Part shown: piece by piece, positions 1 to 13,259 of the stretch
Layout of the letters: each line of letters begins with the position of its first letter
Position numbering within the stretch: position 1 is the stretch's first letter
Source: an uncultured Candidatus Izemoplasmatales bacterium
GTDB lineage: Bacteria; Bacillota_I; Bacilli_A; Izemoplasmatales; Izemoplasmataceae
Length of the DNA stretch: 64,000 nt
Assembly (NCBI GenBank): GCA_964395055.1
Contig: CAYNAA010000004.1
Coordinates: 1,830 to 65,829 of the forward strand
Reading direction: 5' to 3'
Program-made: the position numbers and the translations under genes
The notes under the pieces: model-generated
Databases searched by the model: none
What the model was told of the DNA's origin: nothing
What the model saw: the letters and a program-made list of their open reading frames with translations, nothing else

Positions 1-712
1 TAGGAGGATATAGAAAACCTCCTGGTATGTAGATAACATCATAAATGCTATATACACTTGGATCCATGGATTTCGGGATTGACCATTTGAAAATCCCGGG
101 CGATTGATAATCGTCATCGTCATCGATTAGCGCTGCATTGCCCTTTCCGGGCCATATGGGAATTTCAGGCAAAATAGCCATGGTGGCGTGCCATTCAATT
201 GGCAGAGCCATCATGGCGGTCCATGCAGATTCCTTTGGTGGGGCAATCCGGTTTATCTCTTCGGCCATTCCGCCGGATAGGATTTGAATTTTCTCCCAAG
301 TACGAAAGGATATCTCACCTCTTGCGGTAGGAATCTCAAGGACAATCATATTTCCCCCTTGATACAAGGTGTATCGGGTATTTCCGGTACAAGTACCATA
401 TATCAAAGTGACATCCCATGGACAGTATTCCCCCAAAGTGGGAGTTATGGCGATCCCATTTTCTATATTTGCAGCCCGTTCCCTTCGCCATTGTGCCACT
501 TGGGCATTCACCAATTCTTGCATTGTGGAAATATGCCTCACCTCATCTAACGGGACAACGGTCCCGTGCTTAAAGAAAGCACGGAGCCGCTCAAAAGCGA
601 TTGCCGCTTGTGTGAAGTCCCGATACTCGAAGATGTATTTCTTATCGTTGGCCACATACATGTTCACGTTTTCTTCTCTCATGTCTTCTGTCCTCATGTT
701 TTCTGTCCTCAT
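1..712 (-). CDS. hypothetical protein; C-terminal end lies beyond the left window edge
   Basis: Minus-strand frame is open from ATG 712 to base 1, with in-frame alternative starts at 696, 682 and 661. Begins MRTENMRTEDMREENVNMYVANDKKYIFEY. Missing from the ORF track because it runs off the window. Plus-strand ORFs 284-874 are its shadow frames. Confidence 0.55.
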   Translation of the reverse strand, partial: MRTENMRTEDMREENVNMYVANDKKYIFEYRDFTQAAIAFERLRAFFKHGTVVPLDEVRHISTMQELVNAQVAQWRRERAANIENGIAITPTLGEYCPWDVTLIYGTCTGNTRYTLYQGGNMIVLEIPTARGEISFRTWEKIQILSGGMAEEINRIAPPKESAWTAMMALPIEWHATMAILPEIPIWPGKGNAALIDDDDDYQSPGIFKWSIPKSMDPSVYSIYDVIYIPGGFLYPP

Positions 713-723
713 AGAATATTCTA
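712..723. repeat. TAGAATATTCTA palindrome, exact copy
   Basis: 12/12. Its TAG (723-721, minus strand) is the stop of ORF 721-858. It abuts ATG 712 of the next ORF. Confidence 0.9.
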
Positions 724-858
724 CGACACGTCGAATCCGCTATTGCGGAAAGCCTTTAACTCACTCCAAGTCAATGCCATTTTAACCTCTCCCGGATATG
801 GTAATCCGGGGGCGCCAATCCTGATCGTCCGCATCGCATGGTCAATCCATACCGTCAT
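721..858 (-). CDS. small hypothetical protein (45 aa)
   Basis: Hand translation: MTVWIDHAMRTIRIGAPGLPYPGEVKMALTWSELKAFRNSGFDVS. AGGAG (867-871) lies 8 nt before ATG 858. Below the 60-aa cutoff of the ORF track. Confidence 0.4.
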   Translation of the reverse strand: MTVWIDHAMRTIRIGAPGLPYPGEVKMALTWSELKAFRNSGFDVS

Positions 859-871
859 GATGTTTTCTCCT

Positions 872-883
872 TAGAATATTCTA
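872..883. repeat. TAGAATATTCTA palindrome, exact copy
   Basis: 12/12. On the minus strand it is fused to the SD as TAGAATATTCTAAGGAG, 13 nt before ATG 858. Confidence 0.9.
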
Positions 884-901
884 AGAGTCGTTATGACTCT
901 T
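883..901 (-). promoter_or_regulatory. leader stem-loop (7-bp stem, 5-nt loop)
   Basis: AAGAGTC-ATAAC-GACTCTT on the minus strand, between the predicted promoter at 914-943 and the palindrome/SD. Confidence 0.5.
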
Positions 902-913
902 AACTATGCTCCC

Positions 914-943
914 ATTATAACACAAAGACCGGTCTTGTGTCAA
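914..943 (-). promoter_or_regulatory. sigma70-type consensus promoter reading leftward
   Basis: Minus strand reads TTGACA (943-938), an 18-nt spacer, then TATAAT (919-914) preceded by TGT (extended -10). Confidence 0.7.
925..936. promoter_or_regulatory. putative operator, perfect palindrome AAGACCGGTCTT (in the promoter spacer)
   Basis: 12-bp perfect palindrome inside the -35/-10 spacer. An identical copy lies at 948-959. Confidence 0.55.
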
Positions 944-947
944 GCAT

Positions 948-959
948 AAGACCGGTCTT
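948..959. promoter_or_regulatory. putative operator, perfect palindrome AAGACCGGTCTT (upstream of -35)
   Basis: Identical to 925-936, with centres 23 bp apart. The two copies bracket the -35 hexamer. Confidence 0.55.
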
Positions 960-960
960 T

Positions 961-1034
961 ATTCCTACGCGGGCGTGGGCGCCTTTATTCCCCTACGCGG
1001 GCGTGATTCCTACGTGGGCGTGAGCGCCTTTATT
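961..1034. repeat. GC-rich direct repeats (CCTACG[C/T]GGGCGTG x3; 29-bp unit x2)
   Basis: 14-mers at 964-977, 992-1005 and 1009-1022. GCGCCTTTATT at 979-989 and 1024-1034. The 29-bp unit at 961-989 recurs at 1006-1034 with 2 mismatches. Confidence 0.8.
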
Positions 1035-1035
1035 G

Positions 1036-1047
1036 TAGAATATTCTA
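1036..1047. repeat. TAGAATATTCTA palindrome, exact copy
   Basis: 12/12. Non-coding, between the two repeat families upstream of the 914-943 promoter. Confidence 0.9.
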
Positions 1048-1056
1048 TCCCATACT

Positions 1057-1137
1057 TTTATAATCCGCCCGGATCAGTCCTAATTTATAATCCGCCCAGA
1101 TCAGTCCTAATTTATAATCCGCCCGAATCAGCCCAAT
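1057..1137. repeat. 27-bp direct tandem repeat x3
   Basis: TTTATAATCCGCCCGGATCAGTCCTAA at 1057-1083, 1084-1110 (1 mismatch) and 1111-1137 (more diverged). Confidence 0.85.
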
Positions 1138-1306
1138 CCAAGTTTTCTTACAACCCAAGTTCCCTTGCAATCCGCCTATAACTCAAGTTTTTCCGAAACG
1201 TTTGGAAATAACCTAAATGATGTTGATCTGGTCAACACCACATGTTTTCTTACATAAGCCATGGCCTCTTCACTGGTGAAAAAAGACTTTACCTTTATAT
1301 CAGCAT

Positions 1307-1336
1307 CCAATCATCACTTTTCCAATCATCACTTTT
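1307..1336. repeat. 15-bp tandem repeat x2 (CCAATCATCACTTTT)
   Basis: Copies at 1307-1321 and 1322-1336. A partial third copy runs into the stop codon of ORF 1341-1577. Confidence 0.7.
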
Positions 1337-1340
1337 TCAA

Positions 1341-1577
1341 TCATTCTGGAATCTCTTGCAATAAACCTGGGAAAACTTGAGTAACATATTCTTCATAAAG
1401 CCATTCCTTCAATTGATCTAGATTATCAAGATCAAATATCCCAGATTGACTCTCGTGTACCAAATGAACATACAATGCAATGGCAAAGAAATCTACTGTA
1501 TCTTCGCAAAAATGCGGATCATTTAGGTAGTATACGAAATCTTGGAAAAATTGTTCAGCATCGGTATGCATCAGCAT
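1341..1577 (-). CDS. hypothetical protein (78 aa)
   Basis: ATG 1577 is preceded by AGGAGG. The upstream ORF stops at 1571-1573, giving a compact coupled junction. Confidence 0.6.
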   Translation of the reverse strand: MLMHTDAEQFFQDFVYYLNDPHFCEDTVDFFAIALYVHLVHESQSGIFDLDNLDQLKEWLYEEYVTQVFPGLLQEIPE

Positions 1578-1846
1578 TGTCCTCCTTTATCTAAAGTGTT
1601 CTCATGATCTTTACAATATTGCCAATCCCCTGTCGCCGCGAGAGCTAAAGCTTTCGCAGCATACGATAATTCTCCTTTGCACAAGTATTCATGGATCACG
1701 TAATATAAAACATTACGTGGTGTAAATGTATGGACAGCAGATTTTCTTTCTGTACTCATACATTGAACAGCTTCATGACGATAGTTGAATATCATATTTG
1801 ATGCAATCACTCTTGTCCCTTTAGACATATGAGTAATGAAAAACAT
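1571..1846 (-). CDS. hypothetical protein (91 aa)
   Basis: ATG start with a purine-rich SD-like stretch upstream. Packed against its neighbours on the same strand. Confidence 0.55.
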   Translation of the reverse strand: MFFITHMSKGTRVIASNMIFNYRHEAVQCMSTERKSAVHTFTPRNVLYYVIHEYLCKGELSYAAKALALAATGDWQYCKDHENTLDKGGQC

Positions 1847-1849
1847 GCC

Positions 1850-2077
1850 TTACTTCCTATGAATCTGTAAAGATTTGTATGGGCCACGTTCCCCCATCTT
1901 TTCGACTTGCTCAAACCGAAAACGAGGAAACATAGAATTCAAGTAATTCTTGAGTGCCGCATCGGAACGACACCTACCACGGACATGCTTCAAAAACAAA
2001 ACAATTGTACGCATATCTTCTTCCGTTCGCGGATCTAATACTTCTTGCAAACGTTGCGCATCTTCAAATCGAATCAT
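1850..2077 (-). CDS. hypothetical protein (75 aa)
   Basis: ATG 2077 lies 23 nt downstream of palindrome 2101-2112, with AAAGGA in between. Confidence 0.55.
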   Translation of the reverse strand: MIRFEDAQRLQEVLDPRTEEDMRTIVLFLKHVRGRCRSDAALKNYLNSMFPRFRFEQVEKMGERGPYKSLQIHRK

Positions 2078-2100
2078 TGTTCTATCCTTTCTTTTCCTTT

Positions 2101-2112
2101 TAGAATATTCTA
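2101..2112. repeat. TAGAATATTCTA palindrome, exact copy
   Basis: 12/12. Its TAG (2112-2110, minus strand) is the stop codon of ORF 2110-2295. Confidence 0.9.
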
Positions 2113-2295
2113 ACCACGAAGTCGATCAATCTCTTTTCGTAAATTTCGATTTTCCGCCATCTCATCTGCCCACGCTTGGCGTAATTCCTCAATGCGGGCA
2201 TTTTGATATTGCAATTTCTTAACATAATCTTCATCAGGAAAAAAGGCCTCTAATACTTGTTCAATTTCCTTTAACAAGTGGCTTTTGTCCTTCAT
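2110..2295 (-). CDS. small coiled-coil protein, member of a 3-gene paralogue set
   Basis: 61 aa. Shares ENRNLR and RIEEL with ORF 2549-3109, and KEIDRLR with ORF 2335-2556. Confidence 0.5.
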   Translation of the reverse strand: MKDKSHLLKEIEQVLEAFFPDEDYVKKLQYQNARIEELRQAWADEMAENRNLRKEIDRLRG

Positions 2296-2334
2296 TTTCT
2301 TTCCTCTTCTTAGGTTTTTCTTAGGTCTTTTTTC

Positions 2335-2556
2335 TTAGGTCTTTTTCTTACGAAGCCGATCAATTTCTTTGTCCACCACATCCATAGCACCATGTAATGC
2401 TTCCCATTCCTTGGTTCCACACCATTCTGGGATCATTCGCCATGCTGCCCATGCCGCTGCTGTTTGCTTTATTATTTCACGCAGCCGTTCAATTTCTGCT
2501 ATGGCGCACTCGTGGTGTGCGCGCCAACATTCCTGATAATGGTTTTCATTATTCAT
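2335..2556 (-). CDS. small coiled-coil protein, paralogue set
   Basis: 73 aa. ECWRAHHECAIAEIERLRE parallels DCWRIYWKRAVAEVDRLRT of ORF 2549-3109. ATG 2556 follows AAGGA. Confidence 0.5.
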   Translation of the reverse strand: MNNENHYQECWRAHHECAIAEIERLREIIKQTAAAWAAWRMIPEWCGTKEWEALHGAMDVVDKEIDRLRKKKT

Positions 2557-3109
2557 CGTTTTGATCCTTTTTTCGGTTCAGCGTGGTTTTCAATTCCTCG
2601 ATACGGGAGTTGAAGTTCCCCCGCAGCCGCCGGACCTCATCCACCAACAACCCAAGAAGGTCGAGTAAAGCATCGTCAGTAGTATGAAGGTTATGGCTGT
2701 CTATTATGGGTCGCCAAGATTCGGATTGCGCCGCAATTACTTGGTGCACCAATGGTTCTATCACCGATTTTATGCTCTCACGTTCCGAGTCTAACCCTTT
2801 GGTCATAGCCACCCAGGCTTCATTGCACAGGTATTCTTCCCACAGGTATGTATACCCCGGATTGACAGCTACCTTATTGGGATTAGTGCCATGGCCATTG
2901 TAATACATGGTTTTGATTGCCTGCATCTTAATAGCGTTTCGCAAATTGCGATTTTCTGTTCGCAGCCGATCAACCTCCGCCACAGCGCGTTTCCAGTAAA
3001 TACGCCAACAATCTTCACTCATTGCTCTGGTCATCCTTTTCTCCGGTGTCATCCCACCGGCGCATATACATCCTCCATCCGAAATCCTACCGCTCACGTA
3101 TCGTTGCAT
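2549..3109 (-). CDS. coiled-coil protein, paralogue set (start probably ATG 3034)
   Basis: 186-aa maximal ORF. GGAG sits 6 nt before ATG 3034 (MTRAMSEDCW...). Lies in the GC-rich island. Confidence 0.5.
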   Translation of the reverse strand: MQRYVSGRISDGGCICAGGMTPEKRMTRAMSEDCWRIYWKRAVAEVDRLRTENRNLRNAIKMQAIKTMYYNGHGTNPNKVAVNPGYTYLWEEYLCNEAWVAMTKGLDSERESIKSVIEPLVHQVIAAQSESWRPIIDSHNLHTTDDALLDLLGLLVDEVRRLRGNFNSRIEELKTTLNRKKDQNDE

Positions 3110-3193
3110 ACTCCAGCCAGCGCACCTCGTTTCCTACCCGCACCGGTAGCCACAAAAACTTGCGCACGTCTCCGTAGTTGGGGATTGTCCACC

Positions 3194-3502
3194 TCATGAT
3201 TCGCCCTCCATGATTTCCTTCACGTTCTCATCTACCTTTGCCAACGCCTCGAGCAGCGCGAGTGTGGCAGACTGGGCACGACCGGTATAATAGGAATCTG
3301 TATAAGGCAAGTAAATGCTTGCACGACTCCGGATAATACGCTCAATATGCGGCTCCCCAGATATAAAATTCCAGAGCCATCCCAGCCACCATCCGTCCAC
3401 AGTAACCGTATCTATGCTTTTAGTGGGGTCCGGGGCGATGCACTGCCATCCAGTAAATTTCCAGCAACCACACTCACAAATCCCTACTTTACCCACGCCC
3501 AC
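3194..3502 (-). CDS. hypothetical protein (GC-rich island)
   Basis: GTG start with no clear SD. The translation looks protein-like, whereas the overlapping plus-strand ORFs are S/P/H-rich junk. Confidence 0.35.
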   Translation of the reverse strand: MGVGKVGICECGCWKFTGWQCIAPDPTKSIDTVTVDGWWLGWLWNFISGEPHIERIIRSRASIYLPYTDSYYTGRAQSATLALLEALAKVDENVKEIMEGES

Positions 3503-3553
3503 GGCGCGGCTTCGGGCGTCATACCCACCAGGTGGGCGAGTTCGGCTATCTGG

Positions 3554-3811
3554 TCAGCAGTCATTGTTCTGGCCCTCCATGGTTATTTTTTCTGGTTCCC
3601 ATACTGGGCAGTCCTTTCCGTCCCACGCCCAACACTCTAACCTCTTAGACGTGTCTAGTGCTGCGTGTATGTAGTTAACCTTCGTAAAGGCTGTAGGTAG
3701 TTGAATAGGGTAGGAGCAGGATGTTGTGCAGTCGCTCTTGCGAATGTGCCCATAGCGCCGCTTCATTGTTTCGCGATCCCACCACTTGCATGTACCGCAG
3801 CATTGTCTCAT
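3554..3811 (-). CDS. Cys-rich hypothetical protein (85 aa, GC-rich island)
   Basis: MRQCCGTCKWW... ATGA start/stop overlap with ORF 3808-4188. Confidence 0.5.
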   Translation of the reverse strand: MRQCCGTCKWWDRETMKRRYGHIRKSDCTTSCSYPIQLPTAFTKVNYIHAALDTSKRLECWAWDGKDCPVWEPEKITMEGQNNDC

Positions 3812-4188
3812 TCATCGTCTTTTTCCTTCTTTTCCTGCCACTCGGTATGCACCCCTGCTACCCAGGGCAGCACGTCCGCTAAATCGTGTCCCACACCAAC
3901 ACACAACTCTGTGTATTGTGCATGATCGAAATAGAAGCGCACACCAGCGGCGTCAAACGCCAGTTCGTCTCGGTTGGCCACACGCAGGCCCAACAATGCC
4001 GCGCGCAGCTCGAAAAACTCATGCACCAATGTAGCCACCACATGAGCCCACGGCTGATCCATGCCAATACACACACGGATGTACCGGCCATCATCCCTAG
4101 GAAACTCAAAGTCTCCACCAGCACCACCGCGTGGATAGACGCGGGTGTAGGCGCCATTCACGATCAGGCCCCGGTACCGTTTGCTCAT
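3808..4188 (-). CDS. hypothetical protein (126 aa, GC-rich island)
   Basis: ATGA overlaps at both ends (4185-4188 and 3808-3811) indicate a translationally coupled chain. Confidence 0.55.
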   Translation of the reverse strand: MSKRYRGLIVNGAYTRVYPRGGAGGDFEFPRDDGRYIRVCIGMDQPWAHVVATLVHEFFELRAALLGLRVANRDELAFDAAGVRFYFDHAQYTELCVGVGHDLADVLPWVAGVHTEWQEKKEKDDE

Positions 4189-4970
4189 GATGTTTTTCCC
4201 ATCCGTGCCTCAAGCGCACGGAGTGCCTGGCCGAATTCGTTGTCGTGCCCACAGATGGATGTGATGTGGATAAGTCTGACGTGACCGTAGCGAACTCCAT
4301 TTGGAGCAATTGCTAAATACCCACTTATGCCTATACGCCACCCCGTCGGCCACTCCGGCAGCGGCTCGGGTGGCGGGATAATGCCCATCTCACGCGCGCG
4401 GGCGAGAGCAGCGTGGGCCTCCCATTCTGTGGCGAAAATGCCCTGTAGGTATTCCACAGACATGCACACGTAGAGTTTTCCGTATGGGGTGAGCCAATAC
4501 TTCCCGTCCGTCACATCCCACAGCCCGTCGTCCCGCTCGACCACCTCCCACCCGTCATCGGGTTCGCCGTTCCGCTCGGCCTGCTCCGGCTCATGGTATT
4601 CAATCAGTGCAAGCAGCGCCTCGGCGGCGGTGGCAAACACGTCATTTTCCGAGCACACAGCGCTAGTTTTACCGTCATGGCACACATAGAGATCACTATT
4701 TGCTGGACTCCTGCCATTGGCAATTGCCCAACCACTGGGGTGTCCTCCGGCACGTCGTACCCGAAACACTCCAGACCTCTCGCGTGCATTTACGAGGTCG
4801 CAGAATTTTTCGATCATAGCATCCAGGCTTTGCAAGTCAAAGCAATGGGGTCCATGATGGAGCACCCAAAAATAGGCGCCTTTTGTGTCGCGATTGCCCT
4901 GCACCCCCGCCTGTCCACGCTCCATGTAGCGTATGAGCTTGTTCTCGTCTGCCTGTGCCAAGTTTTTCAT
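4185..4970 (-). CDS. hypothetical protein (261 aa, GC-rich island)
   Basis: Longest ORF of the island. ATG 4970 overlaps the stop of the 35-aa ORF 4967-5074. Confidence 0.6.
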   Translation of the reverse strand: MKNLAQADENKLIRYMERGQAGVQGNRDTKGAYFWVLHHGPHCFDLQSLDAMIEKFCDLVNARERSGVFRVRRAGGHPSGWAIANGRSPANSDLYVCHDGKTSAVCSENDVFATAAEALLALIEYHEPEQAERNGEPDDGWEVVERDDGLWDVTDGKYWLTPYGKLYVCMSVEYLQGIFATEWEAHAALARAREMGIIPPPEPLPEWPTGWRIGISGYLAIAPNGVRYGHVRLIHITSICGHDNEFGQALRALEARMGKTS

Positions 4971-5074
4971 GTCAGTACCTCCAATTGCCGCACCTGGATT
5001 TTGTCACGATTACCCAGAAACAGCATGTCTTCCGCCTGCCCACGCTCCATGTAGCGCAAAATTTTTAGCTCCAT
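4967..5074 (-). CDS. 35-aa ORF, truncated duplicate of the N-terminus of ORF 4185-4970
   Basis: MELKILRYMERGQAEDMLFLGNRDKIQVRQLEVLT compared with NKLIRYMERGQAGVQGNRD. The 25-nt repeat at 5032-5056 and 4907-4931 differs at 1 position. ATG 5074 lies 20 nt after palindrome 5095-5106. Confidence 0.35.
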   Translation of the reverse strand: MELKILRYMERGQAEDMLFLGNRDKIQVRQLEVLT

Positions 5075-5094
5075 AGCTGCCTTCTCTCCAAGGT

Positions 5095-5106
5095 TAGAAT
5101 ATTCTA
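5095..5106. repeat. TAGAATATTCTA palindrome, exact copy
   Basis: 12/12. Marks the right edge of the GC-rich island and lies downstream of the tRNA and its hairpin. Confidence 0.9.
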
Positions 5107-5121
5107 ACTTTTTTCTTTAAG

Positions 5122-5154
5122 GGTACTCCCTCCCTTTTAATGGGAGGGAGTACC
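5122..5154. other. 13-bp GC-rich stem-loop downstream of the tRNA
   Basis: GGTACTCCCTCCC, a 7-nt loop, then GGGAGGGAGTACC. No U-tract follows it on the transcribed (minus) strand. Confidence 0.7.
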
Positions 5155-5169
5155 GATCAATTAAAAAAG

Positions 5170-5256
5170 TGGTAGGCGAGGCGGGGATCGAACCCGCAAG
5201 CCCATACGGGCAAGGGATTTTAAGTCCCTCGTGTATTCCAATTCCACCACTCGCCC
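5170..5256 (-). tRNA. tRNA-Leu (anticodon UAA), class II, CCA encoded
   Basis: Hand-folded. Acceptor GGGCGAG/CTCGCCT. D-arm GTG..CAC with GG in the loop. Anticodon stem AGGGA/TCCCT with loop CTTAAAA. Long variable arm GCCC-GTAT-GGGC. T-arm GCGGG-TTCGATC-CCCGC. Discriminator A, then CCA. 87 nt. Confidence 0.9.
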
Positions 5257-5257
5257 T

Positions 5258-5269
5258 TAGAATATTCTA
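5258..5269. repeat. TAGAATATTCTA palindrome, exact copy
   Basis: 12/12. Ends 1 nt before the 5' end of the tRNA. Confidence 0.9.
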
Positions 5270-5340
5270 TTTTCTCGATATTAGTGCTAACAAAAAAAGC
5301 AGTAGCACAGCTCCTGTTAGCACATAGTTTAGAGCCTCCA

Positions 5341-6417
5341 TTACTCTGAGAGAATGTCATTCACCATCTCCCAAAAGCGATCTGGGTCCTTGTCCCGAGC
5401 TTCTTCAATACGAATAAGCTCATCTTCTAAATCTGGTAATTCTTCCTGAGCAACCTTGTCACCCAGAGCTGCATCTAATTGTCGTGCCAAGATTTGACTA
5501 CGACAAACATTTCGCGCACTTTTCAGTTTCTTTGGCCCCCATGTTTTTGGGGCTTTTTCTTTTCGTGGCTTGTCTTTGTCTGCTCTCTTCTGTTTCAACC
5601 ACTCTTCAGCTTCTTCTTCATTTTTGATACCATCGACTTCGATGGCTGTTGCAGATGTAAACTTGATTGCATCTTTATCGCCATCGCAGTATTGCTTAAA
5701 TTCTTCTTCAATGAGCGAATGCGCTGAAGCGATCCGCTTAAAATACTGCACTTTTCCACGCCATGTTTCCAAACGGGCTTGTTCAATGGTAGTTACCTTC
5801 TTCGATCCCACCATTGTGAACCCGTGCTTTCTCAATTCATCTAAACGAGCATCCAATGCCAGTTTGGCTCGCGAGCCTCCTAGCTTATAAAACAGGGGAG
5901 AAAGGATATTTGCGATCTCACCTTCAGTTCGATTCTGTCGGACATAGCGTTTCACAGCAAGATAGAGCTCAAACATATCGAGCTCTTCTTCACTGCCATG
6001 ATCCATCATAAGGCGCTGTCGCGTTGGCTCATCAAGATTCAAGACAAGACGATAGGGAACCTGTCCCTCGTAGTGCTTCTTGAAAAACTCTGGCTCGTTA
6101 TCCCGGAGCCACATCAAAGCTCGATGACGTAGAAAACCACAAATACCACGCGGCTTCGCATCATCTTTAGTGGTGTTCATATCCCCCACGATCAAGGGAG
6201 TGCGAATAAAACCATCAGCTTTGAGCTCTGCAATTTTTCGTGTCACTCGCTCATCATATTTGTCAGTGCGGCGAACATTCCACTTTGTAGAATAATCTAC
6301 ATCATCGAGATTGAAATAGTGAAGTTCCTTGTCAGTTTCGATTTCGATTTGTGTGTGCAACTCCGCCATTATTTCAGTGTCAGCATTTAATTCTTCTTGT
6401 ACATGCTCAGTGGTCAT
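5341..6417 (-). CDS. ParB/Srx-superfamily N-terminal domain protein (paralogue C)
   Basis: TPLIVGD...GICGFLRHRALMWL matches the ParB-box GxxRxxA pattern. Lysine/glutamate-rich C-terminus. Confidence 0.5.
   Translation of the reverse strand: MTTEHVQEELNADTEIMAELHTQIEIETDKELHYFNLDDVDYSTKWNVRRTDKYDERVTRKIAELKADGFIRTPLIVGDMNTTKDDAKPRGICGFLRHRALMWLRDNEPEFFKKHYEGQVPYRLVLNLDEPTRQRLMMDHGSEEELDMFELYLAVKRYVRQNRTEGEIANILSPLFYKLGGSRAKLALDARLDELRKHGFTMVGSKKVTTIEQARLETWRGKVQYFKRIASAHSLIEEEFKQYCDGDKDAIKFTSATAIEVDGIKNEEEAEEWLKQKRADKDKPRKEKAPKTWGPKKLKSARNVCRSQILARQLDAALGDKVAQEELPDLEDELIRIEEARDKDPDRFWEMVNDILSE
6288..6299. repeat. palindrome variant TAGAATAATCTA (11/12), inside a CDS
   Basis: One mismatch. 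It is the reverse complement of the variant at 6727-6738. Confidence 0.6.
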
Positions 6418-6440
6418 TTTTCGTTCCTCTTTTTTTTGCG

Positions 6441-6452
6441 TAGAATATTCTA
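6441..6452. repeat. TAGAATATTCTA palindrome, exact copy
   Basis: 12/12. Its TAG (6452-6450) is the stop of ORF 6450-6713. It lies 23 nt before ATG 6417. Confidence 0.9.
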
Positions 6453-6713
6453 CACGAACAGCCTTTCACCAATCACATCGAAAGTTAATGCCCGCGCATT
6501 AACGATATATATAGAACACATCCGCGCGGATGCGAGAATAGCATCGAATTCTTCTTGTGATTCTGGGATCACAGAAGCTCGCCTAAGTGGTTTTTCACTT
6601 AGGATCACTGGCAAATGATTCTTTTTTACCAGCCAATCAAAGGAAGGAGGATCATGAGATCTGATCCCGATACTCTTGATTTCGCATTGTCGCATGTTCA
6701 GTAAGTGTGCCAT
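6450..6713 (-). CDS. hypothetical protein (87 aa), first gene after the tandem promoters
   Basis: ATG 6713 lies 13 nt after palindrome variant 6727-6738, with AAAGGGA as SD. Confidence 0.55.
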   Translation of the reverse strand: MAHLLNMRQCEIKSIGIRSHDPPSFDWLVKKNHLPVILSEKPLRRASVIPESQEEFDAILASARMCSIYIVNARALTFDVIGERLFV

Positions 6714-6726
6714 CGTGTTTCCCTTT

Positions 6727-6738
6727 TAGATTATTCTA
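6727..6738. repeat. palindrome variant TAGATTATTCTA (11/12)
   Basis: Lies between the 14-bp repeat array and the SD of ORF 6450-6713. Confidence 0.7.
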
Positions 6739-6740
6739 CC

Positions 6741-6852
6741 TTTAGCACAAAGTCTTTAGCACAAAGTCTTTAGCACAAAGTCCTCAGCACAAAGTCTTTA
6801 GCATAAAGTCTTTAGCATAAAGTCTTTAGCACAAAGTCTTTAGCATAAAGTC
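6741..6852. repeat. 14-bp direct tandem repeat x8 (TTTAGCACAAAGTC and variants)
   Basis: Eight contiguous units in exact 14-bp register. Variants are C/T at unit position 8, and one unit starts CTC. Lies in the predicted transcribed leader. Confidence 0.9.
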
Positions 6853-6870
6853 TTTCGCCATCATATCTCT

Positions 6871-6900
6871 ATTATATCACAGAAGTAGGTTCAATGTCAA
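6871..6900 (-). promoter_or_regulatory. sigma70-type consensus promoter reading leftward
   Basis: Minus strand reads TTGACA (6900-6895), an 18-nt spacer, then TATAAT (6876-6871) preceded by TGA (extended -10). Confidence 0.7.
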
Positions 6901-6915
6901 GTCTTCCACTATTAT

Positions 6916-6945
6916 ATTATAGTAGTTTTTTTGATCGAAAGTTAA
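6916..6945 (-). promoter_or_regulatory. second promoter, -35 abutting the palindrome
   Basis: Minus strand reads TTAACT (6945-6940), an 18-nt spacer, then TATAAT (6921-6916). Shares the 16-mer AAAAACTACTATAATA with the promoter at 27112-27140. Confidence 0.5.
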
Positions 6946-6957
6946 TAGAATATTCTA
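6946..6957. repeat. TAGAATATTCTA palindrome, exact copy
   Basis: 12/12. Lies 3 nt after the TAA stop of ORF 6961-7845 and directly upstream of the -35 at 6940-6945. Confidence 0.9.
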
Positions 6958-6960
6958 AAA

Positions 6961-7845
6961 TTATGAATTGAGTACCCAATTAACCAAGTTACTATTATTT
7001 CGTAATATGTCTACTTGGCGTTGGGATTCTGCAAAAGAAAGTTCTGTGAAATAATGTTGAGATTGGATTGCTTCCCACATTCTACGCAAACGTGAACGTA
7101 GTTCCATTACTTTATCACTGCGCCCTTTTACCCGATGTGCAGCACAACGTAATTCACCTTTACTGAAAGCTAATTGTTCTACTCCCATAATCCAAGTTTC
7201 TGCTTTTTCTAATCCGATCATCATTGCATACATATATAATTGGTCACGCCATCTTCTATCTAAGTGCCCTCCCATATGAATCGGAATCCCATGATACTTG
7301 AGTGGAATGATGTCTTTATATGCCCCACGATCTCTCCCCTTTACCATCAATCTAATATAGTGTGGGGCTGGATGAGCAGTAGAACAAAAGCCATTAACCT
7401 TCCAATCATATACACAATTGATCCCGTCTTTAAGTATAAAGAATAGATCAGGTTTTCCACCAATAGGAACCCAAAAACCATCCTCAAAAACGATTTTCCC
7501 GTGGGCATCGAATTCATACATGATAGAATTCGCATGTTCTAGTTCTGTGAGCAATTTTCTTAAAGCGCCGGAATTTTTATACTCTTGAAAAACATATCGC
7601 ACATTTTCAAAAGCCCAATCTCTATTATGATGTTCAACTTGGGCCTCGAAAAGAATAGGAAACCATCCTTTTTTGCCAGAAATATGTGCAGCCAAATAGC
7701 TTTTAACATAGGCATCAAAAGCTGATCCAATTGCCATAGGGCGAGTTTGTCGTTGTCGGGGTAAATCCAAAATATATGTAAGAACAAATGACTTACGATC
7801 CTGCTCGAATTTTGAAAGCATTGTCGGACTAATTGCTCTAATCAT
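6961..7845 (-). CDS. PD-(D/E)XK nuclease (Cas4/RecB-like exonuclease fold)
   Basis: GGKPDLFFILKDGINCVYDWKVNG gives the PD...(D/E)xK motif. About 290 aa and adjacent to replication genes. Confidence 0.6.
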   Translation of the reverse strand: MIRAISPTMLSKFEQDRKSFVLTYILDLPRQRQTRPMAIGSAFDAYVKSYLAAHISGKKGWFPILFEAQVEHHNRDWAFENVRYVFQEYKNSGALRKLLTELEHANSIMYEFDAHGKIVFEDGFWVPIGGKPDLFFILKDGINCVYDWKVNGFCSTAHPAPHYIRLMVKGRDRGAYKDIIPLKYHGIPIHMGGHLDRRWRDQLYMYAMMIGLEKAETWIMGVEQLAFSKGELRCAAHRVKGRSDKVMELRSRLRRMWEAIQSQHYFTELSFAESQRQVDILRNNSNLVNWVLNS

Positions 7846-7967
7846 TTTTCATTCCTTGCTGCGGCAAAACAAACTAATGCCAACAATAAAAGTAATATAT
7901 ACTCAATTGGATCAGCTTGTCCTGTAACATAAAACTCAATCGCTTCTGTGAATTGCTCCCACATCAT
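7842..7967 (-). CDS. small membrane protein (41 aa)
   Basis: MMWEQFTEAIEFYVTGQADPIEYILLLLLALVCFAAARNEK. AGGAG sits before ATG 7967. The TGA overlaps ATG 7845 (ATGA). Confidence 0.4.
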   Translation of the reverse strand: MMWEQFTEAIEFYVTGQADPIEYILLLLLALVCFAAARNEK

Positions 7968-7977
7968 TCCTTCTCCT

Positions 7978-7989
7978 TAGAATACTCTA
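7978..7989. repeat. palindrome variant TAGAATACTCTA (11/12)
   Basis: Its minus-strand TAG (7989-7987) is the stop of ORF 7987-8163. It is fused to the SD as ...TTCTAAGGAG. Confidence 0.7.
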
Positions 7990-8163
7990 ATGTACAGGAC
8001 ATTCTACCTTGTTTTCATCAAAAACACGTAACTTATTACCCTCGACTTTGAAAATATATTTGGACATATACCCTCCCTTTGTTGCTTCATCGAAGTCTTT
8101 ATGATCTTCATGATAAAAATGCTCTTCGCCAAATTCATCAATATACATAACGATCTGCATCAT
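7987..8163 (-). CDS. small hypothetical protein (58 aa)
   Basis: MMQIVMYIDEFGEEHFYHEDHKDFDEATKGGYMSKYIFKVEGNKLRVFDENKVECPVH. AGGAGG sits before ATGATG at 8163. Below the ORF-track cutoff. Confidence 0.4.
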   Translation of the reverse strand: MMQIVMYIDEFGEEHFYHEDHKDFDEATKGGYMSKYIFKVEGNKLRVFDENKVECPVH

Positions 8164-8783
8164 TTTTCCTCCTTAGAATATTCTAATCCCTGTTGGAGTA
8201 CATCTCTTATTGCTTGTAAGTGTTCATCCTTAGCCTTAAAACACTTACGTTGATAAACCATATACTCTATAAGCATGGGTAATTCTGTTCGTATTTCTGC
8301 GATAAAACGAGCATTGTTCTCTTTATCTTTTAGAGGTAAACTTGTCACAGATCCAGAGACTACACCTCCTCTTTGTATATTCTTTCCGTAAGTAGTGTCA
8401 CATATTAAATGAGCCTTTGAGTTATTTTCTTTAACAACCCATGGTGCCCGTGTAGCTAGATCATTAAGGGCTTCCAAATACTTTACAACATTAAAACCTA
8501 GTGTCATCATATCTATAGCTAATTCTGTAATATAGCCATGGTTGTTAAAACAATTTTCAAAGAAAGCTAATTTATTTTTATGTGCCTCACATGAATATAG
8601 GATCAAAGTTGAATGGTTAGCAGTGGTTGTTCGTAGCATAAAATTTGAGCTTACTAAATCTACGGAATCAGGATGCTCAAAGGTAATAGTCAAAGCATGT
8701 GTTGTAGATTTCTTACAAACAATACATTCTCGTCCATAAGACTCCATTTTAACTAATGCAGCATGTCCTTCATAGTAAGTCAT
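8160..8783 (-). CDS. hypothetical protein (207 aa)
   Basis: ATGA overlap with the amidase gene at 8780-8783. Palindrome 8174-8185 is embedded in its last codons (LEYSK). Confidence 0.6.
   Translation of the reverse strand: MTYYEGHAALVKMESYGRECIVCKKSTTHALTITFEHPDSVDLVSSNFMLRTTTANHSTLILYSCEAHKNKLAFFENCFNNHGYITELAIDMMTLGFNVVKYLEALNDLATRAPWVVKENNSKAHLICDTTYGKNIQRGGVVSGSVTSLPLKDKENNARFIAEIRTELPMLIEYMVYQRKCFKAKDEHLQAIRDVLQQGLEYSKEEK
8174..8185. repeat. TAGAATATTCTA palindrome, exact copy
   Basis: 12/12. Read as L-E-Y-S in ORF 8160-8783. On the minus strand it is fused to AGGAGG, 10 nt before ATG 8163. Confidence 0.9.
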
Positions 8784-9364
8784 GGCTTAAACCTTTCAAT
8801 GCATCTCTCGATAGCTTGTTGTGTTTTAGGTCCATCGATCCCATCAATTATCCCTAAATAAAAAGCTTCAGCTTGTAAAAATGCTTGTAGTCGTTTTAAG
8901 GGTTCATCAGGAAAAGAATTGTTACGTGTAAAAGAATTACTAATCAGGGATCGAATTTCATCCATATTCACTTTTGCTCCGGGGCAAGTTTTAGCAGTAT
9001 GGTGCTTCTTATTTACATATTGATTGATCTCCCTATGCCCAATTACTTTAATCTCATAATCATCCAAACGATGATACAGTTCAACTATAGCATTCTTTTG
9101 CTCATCCGTAAAATCTGCAAGATCACCATGTCCAGAACAACATACCCCAATTCCTTTGCGATTTAAGCCTTTGGCATGTGCTCCGGGTTTACTAAGGGGT
9201 CGACCTTTTTCAATATCTCCATTCATTCGGATCACAAAATGATAGCCGATATCTGACCAACCACGTTCAAGATGCCATTGACGAATTTGTTCTACACTAC
9301 AATCTCCAGGTATATCATTAGGAGCAAATGCAGCTGTATGAATAACCAAAAATTTGAAGCTCAT
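8780..9364 (-). CDS. N-acetylmuramoyl-L-alanine amidase endolysin with C-terminal peptidoglycan-binding domain
   Basis: VIHTAA, GYHFVI and H..GLNRKGIGVC match the Amidase_2/PGRP pattern. The C-terminal LQAFLQAEAFYLGIIDGIDGPKTQQAI matches the PG_binding_1 pattern. Confidence 0.8.
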   Translation of the reverse strand: MSFKFLVIHTAAFAPNDIPGDCSVEQIRQWHLERGWSDIGYHFVIRMNGDIEKGRPLSKPGAHAKGLNRKGIGVCCSGHGDLADFTDEQKNAIVELYHRLDDYEIKVIGHREINQYVNKKHHTAKTCPGAKVNMDEIRSLISNSFTRNNSFPDEPLKRLQAFLQAEAFYLGIIDGIDGPKTQQAIERCIERFKP

Positions 9365-9365
9365 G

Positions 9366-9791
9366 TCAATAGTCCTTCTTTAGTTTCTTTTGAACCAAAG
9401 CATCGACTCGCAAATTTGCAGGAATTCCAGCATGTCCAGGAATCCAATTCCAGGTGATTTTATGTTTTCGGCTAAGTTGATCTAATTTGATCCACAAATC
9501 CTTATTTTTAATCTTCACTTTATGCCACCCTTTAGCTCGCCATCTAAAAATCCATTTTGTCATCCCTCTTTGTAGGTATTGTGAATCTGTGTAAAGATCA
9601 ACAGAGCAAGAAGTCTTCAGTTTCTTTAATGCCAAAATGGCGGCTTCAAGTTCCATCCTGTTATTAGTTGATCGTTTTCTAACAACAGTAAATTCTTTTT
9701 CAATATCTCGAAAAATTAAAAGGGCCGCCCCAGCCCCTTTCCCTGGATTAGGGCGGCACCCACCATCACAATATACTTGAACATGCTTCAT
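9366..9791 (-). CDS. ribonuclease HI
   Basis: YCDGG, TNNRMELEA, DSQY and PGHAGIPANLRVDAL give the DEDD catalytic pattern. ATG 9791 overlaps the ligase stop (ATGA). The ORF-track start at 9803 is a TTG. Confidence 0.85.
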   Translation of the reverse strand: MKHVQVYCDGGCRPNPGKGAGAALLIFRDIEKEFTVVRKRSTNNRMELEAAILALKKLKTSCSVDLYTDSQYLQRGMTKWIFRWRAKGWHKVKIKNKDLWIKLDQLSRKHKITWNWIPGHAGIPANLRVDALVQKKLKKDY

Positions 9792-10777
9792 GCACTTCTC
9801 CAATAACGGGCTTCTTTAGGTATCCCGCTATTAGTTAATTCTCGATATTTGAAAGTGATCTTTTGACCTCTTTCAAAATGTTTCAAAGGCATTTCATATT
9901 CTTCTTTTCCTTGTTTTGTTATTGCTTCATTTAGTTTAACTTCAGTGCATAACTCACGTTCTTGATTATTTAGACCAGAAACCTTTATATTTTTATCCCG
10001 CCAACGTACAATCAATGATCCAGCTCTGCCTAGATTACGTGAATCTTTGTCGGTTTGTCGTCCCCAAACAAAGCCAATTACTTCGCCTTCATCATCGAAG
10101 AATGGTTTGTATTTCATGATATTCCATGATCGACGTGGTTCCCATTCTCCAAATACTCTACGAAACATAACACCTTCATGGCCTTGCATCAGTATCTCAG
10201 GTAAAGTTTCGTTTTCAAACTTTTTCCAATTGTAGTCAAAAGGTGTTTGCTCAACGGCTTTGAATATCTCATTTTCTGGGGTGAGATGGGTACCTTTATC
10301 TAGTGCCCAAGGTAGATCTTTTTCAATAGCCAATCTTACCATATAATCTTTGATTTTGCGGTCAATCAACATCTGGCATGTTGGCGTCTTGATAATTCTG
10401 GTATTAAAAACTCTGAGCAAACCTGGAGCATCAAAAGCCATGAATCTGATATGCATCCATTCAGAATTGATGGGTTTATATTTTCTACAAGCACTCATTA
10501 CTTGCTGAAAATTTTGAACCCCTGCCCATAATTCACCATCTACGGGGACTTTAGGCAATTGATCCAACCACCAATCAGGGGCGAAAATAGGCTTAGCGTT
10601 AATGCTCCAAAGGCCAGTGGCTTTACGATCCAAACACCAAGGAACATCAGTTCTTCCTCGTGTTATACCACCATCCCAAAAAGCACGCATTCCATCGAAT
10701 TTGATTGACCATGTCCATTTACCATTAAGTCTACGGAGATCTAACTTTTGGGCTTTCATTAAAAAGAAAGTAGACAT
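9788..10777 (-). CDS. ATP-dependent DNA ligase
   Basis: KFDGMR (motif I, adenylated Lys), DGELW (III), EGVMFRR (IV) and KYKP (V). Confidence 0.85.
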   Translation of the reverse strand: MSTFFLMKAQKLDLRRLNGKWTWSIKFDGMRAFWDGGITRGRTDVPWCLDRKATGLWSINAKPIFAPDWWLDQLPKVPVDGELWAGVQNFQQVMSACRKYKPINSEWMHIRFMAFDAPGLLRVFNTRIIKTPTCQMLIDRKIKDYMVRLAIEKDLPWALDKGTHLTPENEIFKAVEQTPFDYNWKKFENETLPEILMQGHEGVMFRRVFGEWEPRRSWNIMKYKPFFDDEGEVIGFVWGRQTDKDSRNLGRAGSLIVRWRDKNIKVSGLNNQERELCTEVKLNEAITKQGKEEYEMPLKHFERGQKITFKYRELTNSGIPKEARYWRSA

Positions 10778-10788
10778 GTATGGTTTCC

Positions 10789-11103
10789 TTATTTACTTTT
10801 CTTTTTCTTTTCCACAATTACTTCTACGGCGTAGCATTGCTTTTTGCCACCACGAGATAACCATAATGGGTTCAAAGCAATAATCATTGATGGCTTAGCT
10901 TGCGGATGATGTATCGCTTTGGCATTGGGATATTTCTCTAAAAAAGTGATTAACTCCTTTAATGTTGAGGCAGTTTCAATATTATCTGCGGGCTTAATAA
11001 CCTTTTTACTTCGATCAATTTTGCCCAGATGTATGGATGCTGTGCCTTCTCGGCGGAGAAAAATTACAGCTTCCTTATTTACCTTTTTGACTTTAGCTAG
11101 CAT
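10789..11103 (-). CDS. hypothetical protein (104 aa from ATG 11103)
   Basis: The 30-aa N-terminal extension of the track ORF is lysine-rich and overlaps a better small ORF. AAGGGA sits 8 nt before ATG 11103. Confidence 0.45.
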   Translation of the reverse strand: MLAKVKKVNKEAVIFLRREGTASIHLGKIDRSKKVIKPADNIETASTLKELITFLEKYPNAKAIHHPQAKPSMIIALNPLWLSRGGKKQCYAVEVIVEKKKKSK

Positions 11104-11236
11104 TGTTTTTTTCCCTTTCTTCTGCTTGTTTTGCCAAATATGCTTGATAAGCTTTTTCGGCTTTCTCTTTGGTTGTGTACATACATGGCCCATTTCCTAT
11201 GCGCCATTTTCCGTTTGAACATTTTTCTACAGGCAT
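11093..11236 (-). CDS. small hypothetical protein (47 aa)
   Basis: MPVEKCSNGKWRIGNGPCMYTTKEKAEKAYQAYLAKQAEEREKNNAS. AGGAG sits 8 nt before ATG 11236. Confidence 0.45.
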   Translation of the reverse strand: MPVEKCSNGKWRIGNGPCMYTTKEKAEKAYQAYLAKQAEEREKNNAS

Positions 11237-11259
11237 CACTTTTCTCCTAAAAGTTTGGA

Positions 11260-12003: not shown

Positions 12004-12045
12004 TGGATTATCCTTTTAGTTTCTGTGCTTGTTCACTCTGTAAAG

Positions 12046-12994: not shown

Positions 12995-13008
12995 GAGTTT
13001 TTTCCTTA

Positions 13009-13034: not shown

Positions 13035-13038
13035 GCTA

Positions 13039-13257: not shown

Positions 13258-13259
13258 AA

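Follow-up and report, generated by a model that had tools for sequence, protein, structure and literature searches.

A GC-rich operon of small orphan genes, most likely an accessory cassette, in the terminal region of a novel siphovirus

The window, i.e. the whole 64,000-nucleotide stretch of DNA analysed here, belongs to a novel AT-rich siphovirus with a genome of about 72.7 kb, and a GC-rich island lies in the plastic terminal region of that genome. The island is one tightly packed leftward operon of eight to nine small minus-strand ORFs. An assignment to the N4-like phages with a virion RNA polymerase was rejected, as the 1996-aa ORF codes for the tape-measure protein and the 3419-aa ORF weakly matches a distal tail protein. 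The island and its surroundings include the following features, with related loci designated by the letter L and a number:

1850-2077, minus strand: ORF75, which anchors the slot on the left and is conserved, having homologues in L009, L035 and L010
2101-2112: palindrome copy that heads the next unit, with the ORF75 start 24 nt downstream
2110-2295, minus strand: ORF61, the last gene of the island's palindrome-to-palindrome unit, with backbone-like GC
2335-2556, minus strand: ORF73, a motif paralogue of ORF161 (ECWR..AIAEIERLR; KEIDRLR)
2371-5057: GC-rich segment (the island proper), delimited by segmentation and supported by GC profiles and dinucleotide signature
2549-3034, minus strand: ORF161, coiled-coil, with CWR..A.AEVDRLR, ENRNLR and LLVDEVRRLR motifs
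3087-3197, minus strand: ORF36, 36 aa, the sole island ORF with homologues
3194-3502, minus strand: ORF102, GTG start with no Shine-Dalgarno site, Cys/Trp-rich
3484-3564, minus strand: ORF26, ATG start with a good Shine-Dalgarno site, overlapping the ORF102 start
3554-3811, minus strand: ORF85, 85 aa with 8 Cys and 5 Trp and an N-terminal CGTCKWW motif
3808-4188, minus strand: ORF126, an ORFan with an ATGA overlap at each end
4185-4970, minus strand: ORF261, an ORFan and the longest gene of the island, with 56.7% GC, a GC3 of 0.61 and a weak internal repeat
4907-4931: direct repeat of 25 nt, 24 of them identical in its second copy at 5032-5056, encoding RYMERGQA in ORF261 and ORF35
4967-5074, minus strand: ORF35, which holds the right GC change-point (5057)
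5095-5106: palindrome TAGAATATTCTA, a presumed regulatory element heading the island operon, with the ORF35 start 21 nt downstream
5109-5167: strong GC-rich hairpin separating the palindrome from the tRNA; the terminator scan did not call it
5170-5256, minus strand: tRNA-Leu(TAA), the conserved right anchor, decoding TTA, with a syntenic and very similar copy in L009
5341-6417, minus strand: ORF358, a conserved gene (GC 44%, GC3 0.41)

The island genes are probably translationally coupled through four ATGA overlaps (3194-3197, 3808-3811, 4185-4188 and 4967-4970), and Shine-Dalgarno sites are present. The preliminary description had reported the last three overlaps, as well as the Cys-rich 85-aa ORF and the 261-aa ORF, all of which exist. 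A codon model learned from relatives of mid and high GC ranks the frame of every called island ORF above the other five, which confirms that the island is coding. ORF85 is also best in its own frame, yet its score is close to zero; it is uncalled in the Logan annotation of an identical contig, and its exact sequence is missing from the protein collection. An alternative start at 3109 turns ORF161 into ORF186, the N-terminal extension scoring negative on the same model.

Two genes look frameshifted or truncated, and at least two appear to be decayed. ORF26 may represent the frameshifted 5′ part of one gene (A_AAG_UAG) since ORF102, which it overlaps, lies in the −1 frame, so these two ORFs are possibly a single frameshifted gene. 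ORF36 looks truncated because its homologues, found as tandem copies in L044 and L027 (distant phages of the same clade), are about 60-65 aa long, and ORF35 appears to be a partial duplicate or remnant because its N-terminus resembles that of ORF261 (RYMERGQA..GNRD). The ENRNLR and KEIDRLR motifs of ORF61 recur in ORF161 and ORF73.

ORF261 and ORF126 have no homologues among 5.8 billion clustered proteins, and an exhaustive phmmer search with ORF261 returned only the protein itself and one ankyrin-repeat protein, a spurious match with a score inflated by the repeats of the latter. The other island ORFs were compared with smaller libraries only. None of the island ORFs matches INPHARED, Pfam, PHROGs, NCBIfam or PADLOC entries, and Rfam has no match in the island. 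Among 93 related loci, no island homologue was detected except those of ORF36, and regular expressions for motifs of the island proteins were matchless there as well. Two similarities to PDB sequences, that of ORF126 to designed ‘Pizza’ propellers and that of ORF161 to a ‘CAP repeat’ protein, were dismissed as spurious, no stretch being significant individually. Structure prediction, which had been proposed as a check, was of no help: the AF2 single-sequence model of ORF261 is unusable (pLDDT 35) and that of ORF126 (pLDDT 45) is too poor for fold comparison. There is no match in INPHARED by megablast with positions 1-12000 of the window or by tblastn with the family-A DNA polymerase, IMG/VR yielded no close relatives when scanned with one protein at a time (ORF358, ORF261 and the nuclease), and none of the relatives found in the collections searched exceeds 46% protein identity.

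The GC content of positions 2350-5090 is 53.2% compared to 37.4% in the rest of the window, and this is the highest-GC 2.7-kb stretch of the 64 kb (mean over all such stretches 37.9%, s.d. 3.7). The 2.7-kb island inferred earlier from hand counts is thus real, and the counts themselves are exact (41 G+C of 60 at 4501-4560, 35 at 2581-2640 and 19 at 34021-34080). Likelihood segmentation, performed with a threshold of 7.5 (the maximum log-likelihood ratio among 30 random sequences being 5.8), yields discrete steps: 37.5% GC at 1029-2370, 53.5% at 2371-5057, 44.9% at 5058-6273 and 37.4% at 6274-12000. The left edge (2370/2371), located within the 3′ end of ORF73, is as had been claimed; the right edge, described as abrupt near 5090, does have a step at 5057/5058, but a second one follows at 6273, so that the descent takes place in two steps and raised GC extends into ORF358 and ORF87. 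Inside the island GC climbs gradually from 47 to 60% with no flat plateau, reaching about 60-63% around 4350-4700 with a maximum of 62.7% at 4351-4650, which was counted against the reading of the island as imported cargo.

Another explanation of the island is that a GC-rich fragment was chimerically joined into the metagenome-assembled contig. The sequence is known only from one NCBI contig and one Logan contig from a single sequencing run, and short repeats (2343-2368 and 5032-5056, the latter adjoining the right change-point) coincide with both GC change-points. These are, however, the only edge repeats, they belong to coding motifs, and at 25-26 nt they are below typical assembly k-mers. 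Moreover, the Logan assembly is 100% identical across both junctions (14,970 bases), the reading frames of ORF73 and ORF35 cross the two change-points, the motif family of ORF61, ORF73 and ORF161 bridges the left junction, and the homologues of ORF36 come from the same phage clade, all of which makes an artefact very unlikely.

Compositionally, the island stands out as foreign by its GC content, by each of the three codon positions, by its choice of codons and by its dinucleotide signature. GC1, GC2 and GC3 are 0.58, 0.43 and 0.57 in the island (0.65, 0.44 and 0.60 in ORF261 and ORF126 taken together) versus 0.50, 0.38 and 0.21 in the backbone. The relative synonymous codon usage (RSCU) correlates negatively with that of the backbone (r=−0.24) and best with that of relatives of 51-58% GC (r=0.4-0.5). 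TTA makes up 9% of the Leu codons compared to 49% in the backbone, despite the adjoining phage tRNA-Leu(TAA), and the proteins contain more Ala, Arg, Cys and Trp and less Ile, Lys, Asn and Phe. The GC-normalised dinucleotide signature lies at a delta* of 0.145 from the backbone versus a mean of 0.062, a distance reached by one of 102 backbone segments, and the relative abundance of CpG is 0.94 versus 0.70.

Deviant composition might nevertheless be a maintained property of the terminal-region genes rather than a mark of recent transfer, in which case AT-rich members of this large clade would actively keep the last few kb before the terminus GC-rich and the island would be an extreme case, its genes being perhaps old residents evolving too fast for recognition in relatives. 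Possible causes are selection for the G/C-ending codons preferred by a GC-richer host, in genes translated while phage-encoded tRNAs for A-ending codons are still scarce, escape from AT-targeted silencing or defence, and GC-biased gene conversion at a recombination hot spot. The GC3 of the ORF358 family exceeds that of the adjacent nuclease in 10 out of 10 phages (0.67 vs 0.35 in L007 and 0.64 vs 0.41 in L009), and as the family groups in the same way as the nuclease does, it is considered vertically inherited. High GC in the region therefore seems to be partly a lasting feature of the clade; it does not by itself prove a recent transfer. Downstream of the nuclease, 8 kb are GC-richer in 12 of the 16 most AT-rich members (the mean difference over the 16 being +3.2 points), no mirror-image AT-rich patches were seen in the GC-rich members, and the GC3 of the major capsid gene is raised too (0.33 vs about 0.2). 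AT-rich members also carry tRNAs for A-ending codons, namely Leu-TAA, Ile-TAT, Lys-TTT, Glu-TTC and Arg-TCT, and phage tRNAs of this kind suggest hosts poor in such tRNAs. ORF358 was also considered as a ParB-like protein, which was rejected since it has no Pfam match and no similarity to the genuine ParB gene at 26019-26969.

A standing bias of this kind, given the ORF358 family and the regional excess in AT-rich members, could explain part of the island signal, and the left third of the island may not be foreign at all because the motif family of ORF61 (with its low GC), ORF73 and ORF161 straddles the left boundary. As an explanation of the whole island, however, it is rather unlikely. The island is shifted beyond synonymous sites, at all three codon positions and in amino acids, its dinucleotide signature is atypical even after normalisation for GC, and its GC3 excess (+0.36) is far above those of the capsid gene (+0.1) and ORF358 (+0.2). 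Furthermore, the corresponding slot in L009 has backbone GC, and the island lacks the palindromes resident in the rest of the region.

These palindromes had been taken for the boundaries of the island. There are indeed copies at 2101-2112 and 5095-5106 and none between them, but the window contains 16 exact copies and five with one mismatch versus 0.53 expected, so flanking by two palindromes is expected for any unit in this arm, and the left copy lies 260 nt outside the GC edge, beyond ORF61. Judging from their placement, 11-24 nt upstream of many start codons, the palindromes are a repeated motif of a presumably regulatory type rather than island borders. What sets the island apart is the gap of 2994 bp between its two copies, the longest among the 12 sites of the terminal 8.2 kb, where the motif otherwise recurs every 0.2-1.1 kb (the other gaps are at most 1065 bp). 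The motif, a perfect palindrome of 12-14 nt, comes without a conserved −35 element. The same core occurs at 23 sites in the closest relative, L008, in which a GC-rich single-gene cassette is located exactly between two copies of the related palindrome. A search of IMG/VR with the double-palindrome DNA pattern gave just one chance match, in a giant-virus contig.

Upstream of the island, the palindrome is accompanied by a −10-like TAGAAT and preceded by the hairpin, which has the strongest fold among the copies (MFE −28 kcal/mol over 60 nt) with no T run after it. At three of 16 copies (5095, 5258 and 11343), the folding energy of the 60 nt upstream ranks among about the lowest 6% of the background. 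The operon is probably transcribed leftward as one unit from or near the palindrome at 5095-5106. The strong promoters postulated earlier are not borne out by a scan for σ70-type sites, which are no commoner than in shuffled sequence, and no intrinsic terminator was found in a scan of the island 3′ end.

By comparison with L009, the island appears to occupy a variable slot between tRNA-Leu(TAA) and ORF75. L009 keeps ORF358 followed by tRNA-Leu(TAA), as well as ORF75, with anchor proteins only about 38-40% identical to those of the window, and it has 5.7 kb of unrelated genes with backbone GC between the anchors. A tRNA gene does adjoin the island, as had been pointed out, but it is a conserved phage gene and not an integration scar: integration at the tRNA was rejected because it is conserved in L009 and there is no att-like repeat. 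No integrase, transposase or (homing) endonuclease domain was detected in the island either.

No donor of the island was found in the collections searched. Capture of the block from a host chromosome, as in a classical moron or host-derived auxiliary genes, would agree with the codon usage of the island, unlike the phage's own, and with 53-57% GC the island would resemble many Planctomycetota or Verrucomicrobiota, phyla whose metagenome-assembled genomes include relatives of the phage. Bacterial homologues of ORF261 and ORF126 are nevertheless missing from the 5.8 billion proteins, in agreement with the exhaustive ORF261 search, the relatives of ORF36 sit in phage contigs, and small, tightly overlapping ORFs are typical phage genes, so host capture is very unlikely. 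The donor was more probably another phage, and a GC-richer relative is a plausible source because the clade of the phage itself spans 33-63% GC.

Taken together, it is reasonable to suggest, with a probability of roughly 0.6, that the island is an accessory cargo operon which came from a GC-richer gene pool into the plastic terminal region of the phage. Most likely it would have arrived in one piece, out of a pool with about 53-58% GC, and landed in the slot between the conserved tRNA-Leu(TAA) and ORF75. The proposal of recent acquisition from a high-GC source is thus upheld in part: the foreign composition, the ORFans, the missing palindromes and the different slot content of L009 speak for it, and the GC3 of ORF358, the motifs of ORF61 and the lack of a donor speak against it. 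The products would be small proteins rich in Cys and Trp together with short coiled-coil ones that carry an Ea22-like EIDRLR motif, and they presumably modulate the infection without being essential. A more specific role in host takeover or anti-defence, suggested in the preliminary description, found no support of any kind, as characterised inhibitors of these types had no match to the island in Pfam, PHROGs, NCBIfam, PADLOC or PDB sequences.

The island is most likely an accessory ORFan cassette, a familiar kind of phage mosaicism. If so, it adds a further example, an operon of orphan cargo genes occupying a slot in a plastic terminal region, and draws attention to proteins that may modulate infection in a phage lineage of which no member has been cultured. 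The GC3-richness of ORF358 in AT-rich genomes advises caution against automatically reading GC islands of phages as recent transfers, and the palindromic motif, which is common to L008 and brackets single cassettes there, may offer a tractable system of motif-mediated gene shuffling outside the T4 group.

Like bacterial tRNA-linked islands, the block is compositionally atypical and adjoins a tRNA gene, but there is no integrase or direct repeat of the tRNA 3′ end, and the tRNA belongs to the conserved phage genes. Among the hallmarks of genomic islands, deviant composition and codon usage and an atypical oligonucleotide signature are present; mobility genes are absent, as are flanking direct repeats beyond the coding-motif ones. 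The A(I/V)AE(I/V)(D/E)RLR coiled-coil motifs of ORF73, ORF161 and ORF61 resemble ALLDEIERLQ of a weakly Ea22-like L008 protein and thereby the Ead/Ea22-like early proteins of lambdoid phages (PF13935), with pairwise E-values of only 0.006-0.02 over 30-50 residues; neither ORF61, ORF73 and ORF186 nor any other island ORF has a match to PF13935 at E up to 1.

Morons, in the concept of Hendrix and Juhala, are extra DNA between conserved genes of tailed phages, with deviant composition and their own expression unit, and are dispensable. A classical moron resides in a temperate phage, has one or two genes, carries a σ70 promoter and an intrinsic terminator of its own and is expressed from the prophage. 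The island is likewise extra DNA of differing base composition between conserved genes and is predicted to form its own unit, but it has eight to nine coupled genes, and no σ70 promoter or terminator stood out. In T4-type phages, ORFan cassettes of hyperplastic regions are bounded by promoter-early stem-loops, PeSLs (Arbiol et al. 2010, PMC2839356; Comeau et al. 2014, PMC4122927). Here too, a plastic region contains variable ORFans flanked by a repeated conserved motif of a presumably regulatory type that precedes genes; a stem-loop accompanies some of its copies, and in L008 a GC-rich gene lies exactly between two copies. The motif is, however, palindromic, lacks a conserved −35 element, has stem-loops at some copies only and does not combine a strong σ70 promoter with a stem-loop terminator, and the phage is a siphovirus unrelated to T4. 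The ‘ORFanage’ of cyanophage S-PM2 comprises 13% of the phage ORFs, and its dispensability and fitness cost were shown experimentally (Puxty et al. 2015, PMC4503421). The island is 2.7 kb long and compositionally deviant, but like the ‘ORFanage’ it is a contiguous block of homologue-less genes at one locus that probably came from phages and can probably be dispensed with.

The GC content of the window is 53.2% at 2350-5090 and 37.4% elsewhere, the former being the maximum among 2.7-kb windows of the 64 kb, and the three G+C counts made by hand in the preliminary description were exact on recount. Likelihood segmentation of GC over window positions 1-12000 placed the borders as follows:

1-1028, 47.2% GC
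1029-2370, 37.5% GC
2371-5057, 53.5% GC (hereafter the island, the remaining window being the backbone)
5058-6273, 44.9% GC
6274-12000, 37.4% GC

The island had been placed at 2350-5090 with an abrupt right edge; the left edge agrees (2370/2371), but at the right one GC falls in two steps through the tRNA-Leu(TAA) gene and the neighboring conserved gene ORF358 (ORFs are named by their length in aa). Within the island there is a gradient from ~47-49% at 2400-3000 to 60-63% at 4350-4700. The window has another GC-raised segment, 25230-27031 (46% GC), which carries a genuine ParB-family gene (26019-26969, matching PF02195 and PF17762) and a 237-aa ORF.

The genes of the island and its left flank are:

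4967-5074, minus strand, ORF35, N-terminus like that of ORF261
4185-4970, minus strand, ORF261, the largest island gene
3808-4188, minus strand, ORF126, an ATGA overlap at each end
3554-3811, minus strand, ORF85, 8 Cys, the lowest codon-model score (near zero)
3484-3564, minus strand, ORF26, ATG start and a good Shine-Dalgarno site
3194-3502, minus strand, ORF102, GTG start without a Shine-Dalgarno site, -1 frame relative to ORF26
3087-3197, minus strand, ORF36, the sole island ORF with homologues
2549-3034, minus strand, ORF161, with an alternative start at 3109 (ORF186) negative on the codon model
2335-2556, minus strand, ORF73, a motif paralogue of ORF161
2110-2295, minus strand, ORF61, low GC, the final gene ahead of the next palindrome

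The ATGA overlaps reported at 3808, 4185 and 4967 were confirmed and a fourth is present at 3194. With the codon model, trained on mid- and high-GC relatives, every island ORF obtained the top score of the six frames in its own frame. The N-terminal RYMERGQA..GNRD of ORF261 is repeated in ORF35, and there is a 25-nt DNA repeat (24/25 match), the upstream copy of which ends at the right GC change-point. The motifs CWR..A.AE(I/V)(D/E)RLR, ENRNLR and KEIDRLR are common to ORF61, ORF73 and ORF161 and absent elsewhere in the 64 kb; this family spans the left GC change-point, with ORF61 being backbone-like in composition.

ORF26/ORF102 and ORF36 show signs of decay. The 3′ end of ORF26 reads ...GUA AAG UAG, and from this A_AAG onwards the -1 frame leads on into ORF102. 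The junction may reflect -1 frameshifting, a mutation that shifted the frame or an error in sequencing. The ORF36 family (...RKFLWLPVR...RWLEYATI...) occurs as tandem pairs of ~60-65 aa in the distant relatives L044 (2497-3078) and L027 (12544-12939), so ORF36 looks truncated; it stops short and, in a different frame, overlaps the start of the alternative ORF186.

ORF261 and ORF126 returned self-matches only among 5.8 billion clustered proteins, and no credible match for the island was found in Pfam, PHROGs, NCBIfam, PADLOC, PDB sequences or by tblastn against GenBank phages. Exhaustive phmmer against 1.84 billion representative proteins gave ORF261 a spurious ankyrin-repeat match and added nothing else, and single-sequence AF2 models were unusable. 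A host-takeover or anti-defence role for the island is a conjecture.

Related phages were collected via alignment of homologues of the PD-(D/E)XK nuclease encoded at 6961-7845 (325 homologues, top identity 44%), giving 80 loci in IMG/VR and 13 in GTDB genomes, the latter mainly Planctomycetota metagenome-assembled genomes with one each from Opitutales, Chloroflexi and Patescibacteria. The clade ranges from 33 to 63% GC and seems to be linked with Planctomycetota and Verrucomicrobiota. Four nuclease relatives (L090, L091, L097, L099) sit within Planctomycetota contigs of 0.48-5.5 Mb, so some clade members may be prophages.

When the ORFs of window 1-6713 were compared with all collected loci, only three had matches: ORF358 (5341-6417, minus strand; 38% in L009 and L008, 31% in L004), ORF75 (1850-2077, minus strand; L009, L035 and L010) and ORF36. 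The gene order in L009 is ORF358 homologue, tRNA-Leu(TAA), 5.7 kb and ORF75 homologue, and its tRNA-Leu is clearly the nearest to that of the window among the copies of eight relatives. The 5.7 kb consist of unrelated genes with backbone GC, including 340-, 358- and 458-aa ORFs and small hydrophobic ORFs. Since unrelated genes lie between the same anchors, the island sits in a variable cargo slot flanked by conserved genes. We consider it, with a probability of about 0.6, to be an accessory ORFan operon that entered a plastic terminal slot as a block, its source being a gene pool of higher GC.

The composition of the island is foreign, as had been proposed. GC1/2/3 values are 0.58/0.43/0.57 in the island and 0.50/0.38/0.21 in the backbone, and codon choice is inverted (CTG 32% vs 3% of Leu, GTG 63% vs 12% of Val), with TTA making up 9% of island Leu codons and 49% in the backbone despite the phage tRNA-Leu(TAA) directly upstream (5170-5256, minus strand). 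Cys is enriched ~3-fold and Trp ~2-fold. GC, codon usage and amino-acid usage are like those of a ~53-56% GC genome, and the highest RSCU correlations (r=0.4-0.5) are with relatives having 51-58% GC. The island is likewise an outlier in its GC-normalised dinucleotide signature, as just 1 of 102 backbone segments attains its delta* of 0.145; CpG is depleted in the backbone (relative abundance 0.70) and not in the island (0.94). AC/GT is depleted in the backbone as well (0.79).

Composition is nevertheless to be read with some caution. The ORF358 family forms the same groups as the adjacent nuclease ({L007, L016, L027}, {window, L008, L009, L004} and {L036, L078, L029}), which indicates vertical inheritance, yet in all 10 phages its GC3 is higher than the nuclease value (e.g. 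0.67 vs 0.35; 0.72 vs 0.54), so that the GC bias is a lasting one specific to this gene. GC is also raised over the 8 kb past the nuclease in the most AT-rich members (mean +3.2 points, 12 of 16 positive), and no mirror-image AT-rich shift downstream of the nuclease was seen in GC-rich members. Because of the ORF358 bias and the regional excess, part of the GC elevation is a standing feature of the clade and composition alone cannot date the island, so the recency proposed for the acquisition is only partly supported. That the GC-richness as such is a maintained compositional bias is conceivable, if rather unlikely.

The tRNAs of AT-rich members (L007, L009, L010, L011, L013, L020, L026, L034, L057, L069, L084 and L085) decode almost solely A-ending codons: Leu-TAA (eight loci), Ile-TAT, Lys-TTT, Glu-TTC and Arg-TCT. 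Of 14 loci with more than 55% GC that were scanned, just 2 carry a tRNA. Such tRNAs fit hosts in which A-ending codons are rare, and there are hints that AT-rich phages of the clade infect hosts GC-richer than themselves. Capture of the island from a host chromosome is quite improbable, and the donor of the acquired operon was probably another phage.

The window belongs to a tailed phage whose genes include those for a P22-coat-like capsid protein, a family-A DNA polymerase and a UvrD-type helicase, together with two giant adjoining ORFs:

41785-52044, minus strand, giant ORF
52041-58031, minus strand, giant ORF

The 1996-aa ORF codes for the tape-measure protein and the neighboring 3419-aa ORF only weakly matches a distal tail protein. 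No similar DNA or polymerase was found in GenBank phages; the phage proteins were found on one NCBI contig (72,688 bp) and one Logan contig (run SRR11308339). The latter is 100% identical to window 1-14970, across the whole island, and we regard an assembly chimera as highly improbable. It extends 71 nt past window position 1 (L001 14971-15041) with another palindrome and 15-nt repeats, and stops. The terminal region 1-1140, which may be a genome end or origin-like region, has 47% GC and contains a 242-aa ORF that matches no Pfam family, tandem repeats of 27 and 45 nt, and three palindromes at intervals of 160 and 164 nt. Of the 80 IMG/VR loci, 28 have a contig end no more than 10 kb from the nuclease on its downstream side and 6 on its upstream side, which points to a genome end that is fixed or a repeat that breaks assembly; on this reading the island lies ~2.4-5.1 kb from the terminus. 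Eight 14-nt tandem units (CTTTAGCACAAAGT) are located at 6726-6879 between ORF87 and the nuclease gene, beside a palindrome near-copy.

The palindrome TAGAATATTCTA occurs at 21 sites (712-47941; 0.53 expected), 16 of them exact and 5 with one mismatch. Most of these stand 11-24 nt ahead of a start codon on the minus strand, often touching the Shine-Dalgarno site; no conserved -35 element was found at the copies, and a strong hairpin precedes only some. In L008, the closest relative, CAGAA(T/A)ATTCTG with the same core occurs at 23 sites spread over 959-20752; 19 of these are within 9 kb downstream of its nuclease, and many precede an ORF start by ~25-55 nt. Judging from its placement, the palindrome resembles a promoter or operator that is specific to the lineage and delimits expression units, and this resident element would drive expression of the island operon. 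The island had been said to be marked off by two palindromes (2101-2112 and 5095-5106), a bracketing that is unremarkable for a general upstream-of-gene motif. More telling is that the island is the longest palindrome-free gap among the 12 sites of the terminal 8.2 kb (2994 bp, others ≤1065 bp), its genes being packed via overlaps without motif-bearing spacers. Exactly between two of the L008 sites lies a gene for a pentapeptide-repeat protein (GC 0.56, GC3 0.67), with GC falling on either side. GC-rich patches past the nuclease in the AT-rich L007 (15894-16817; repeat identified by eye) and L008 (16013-16510; PF00805, E=6e-40) encode pentapeptide-repeat proteins.

An operon acquired into a variable slot has its closest known analogues in several phage systems. 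These include the PeSL-bounded ORFan cassettes of T4-type hyperplastic regions (PMC2839356, PMC4122927), from which the island differs in motif architecture, as well as phage morons and the S-PM2 'ORFanage' (PMC4503421).
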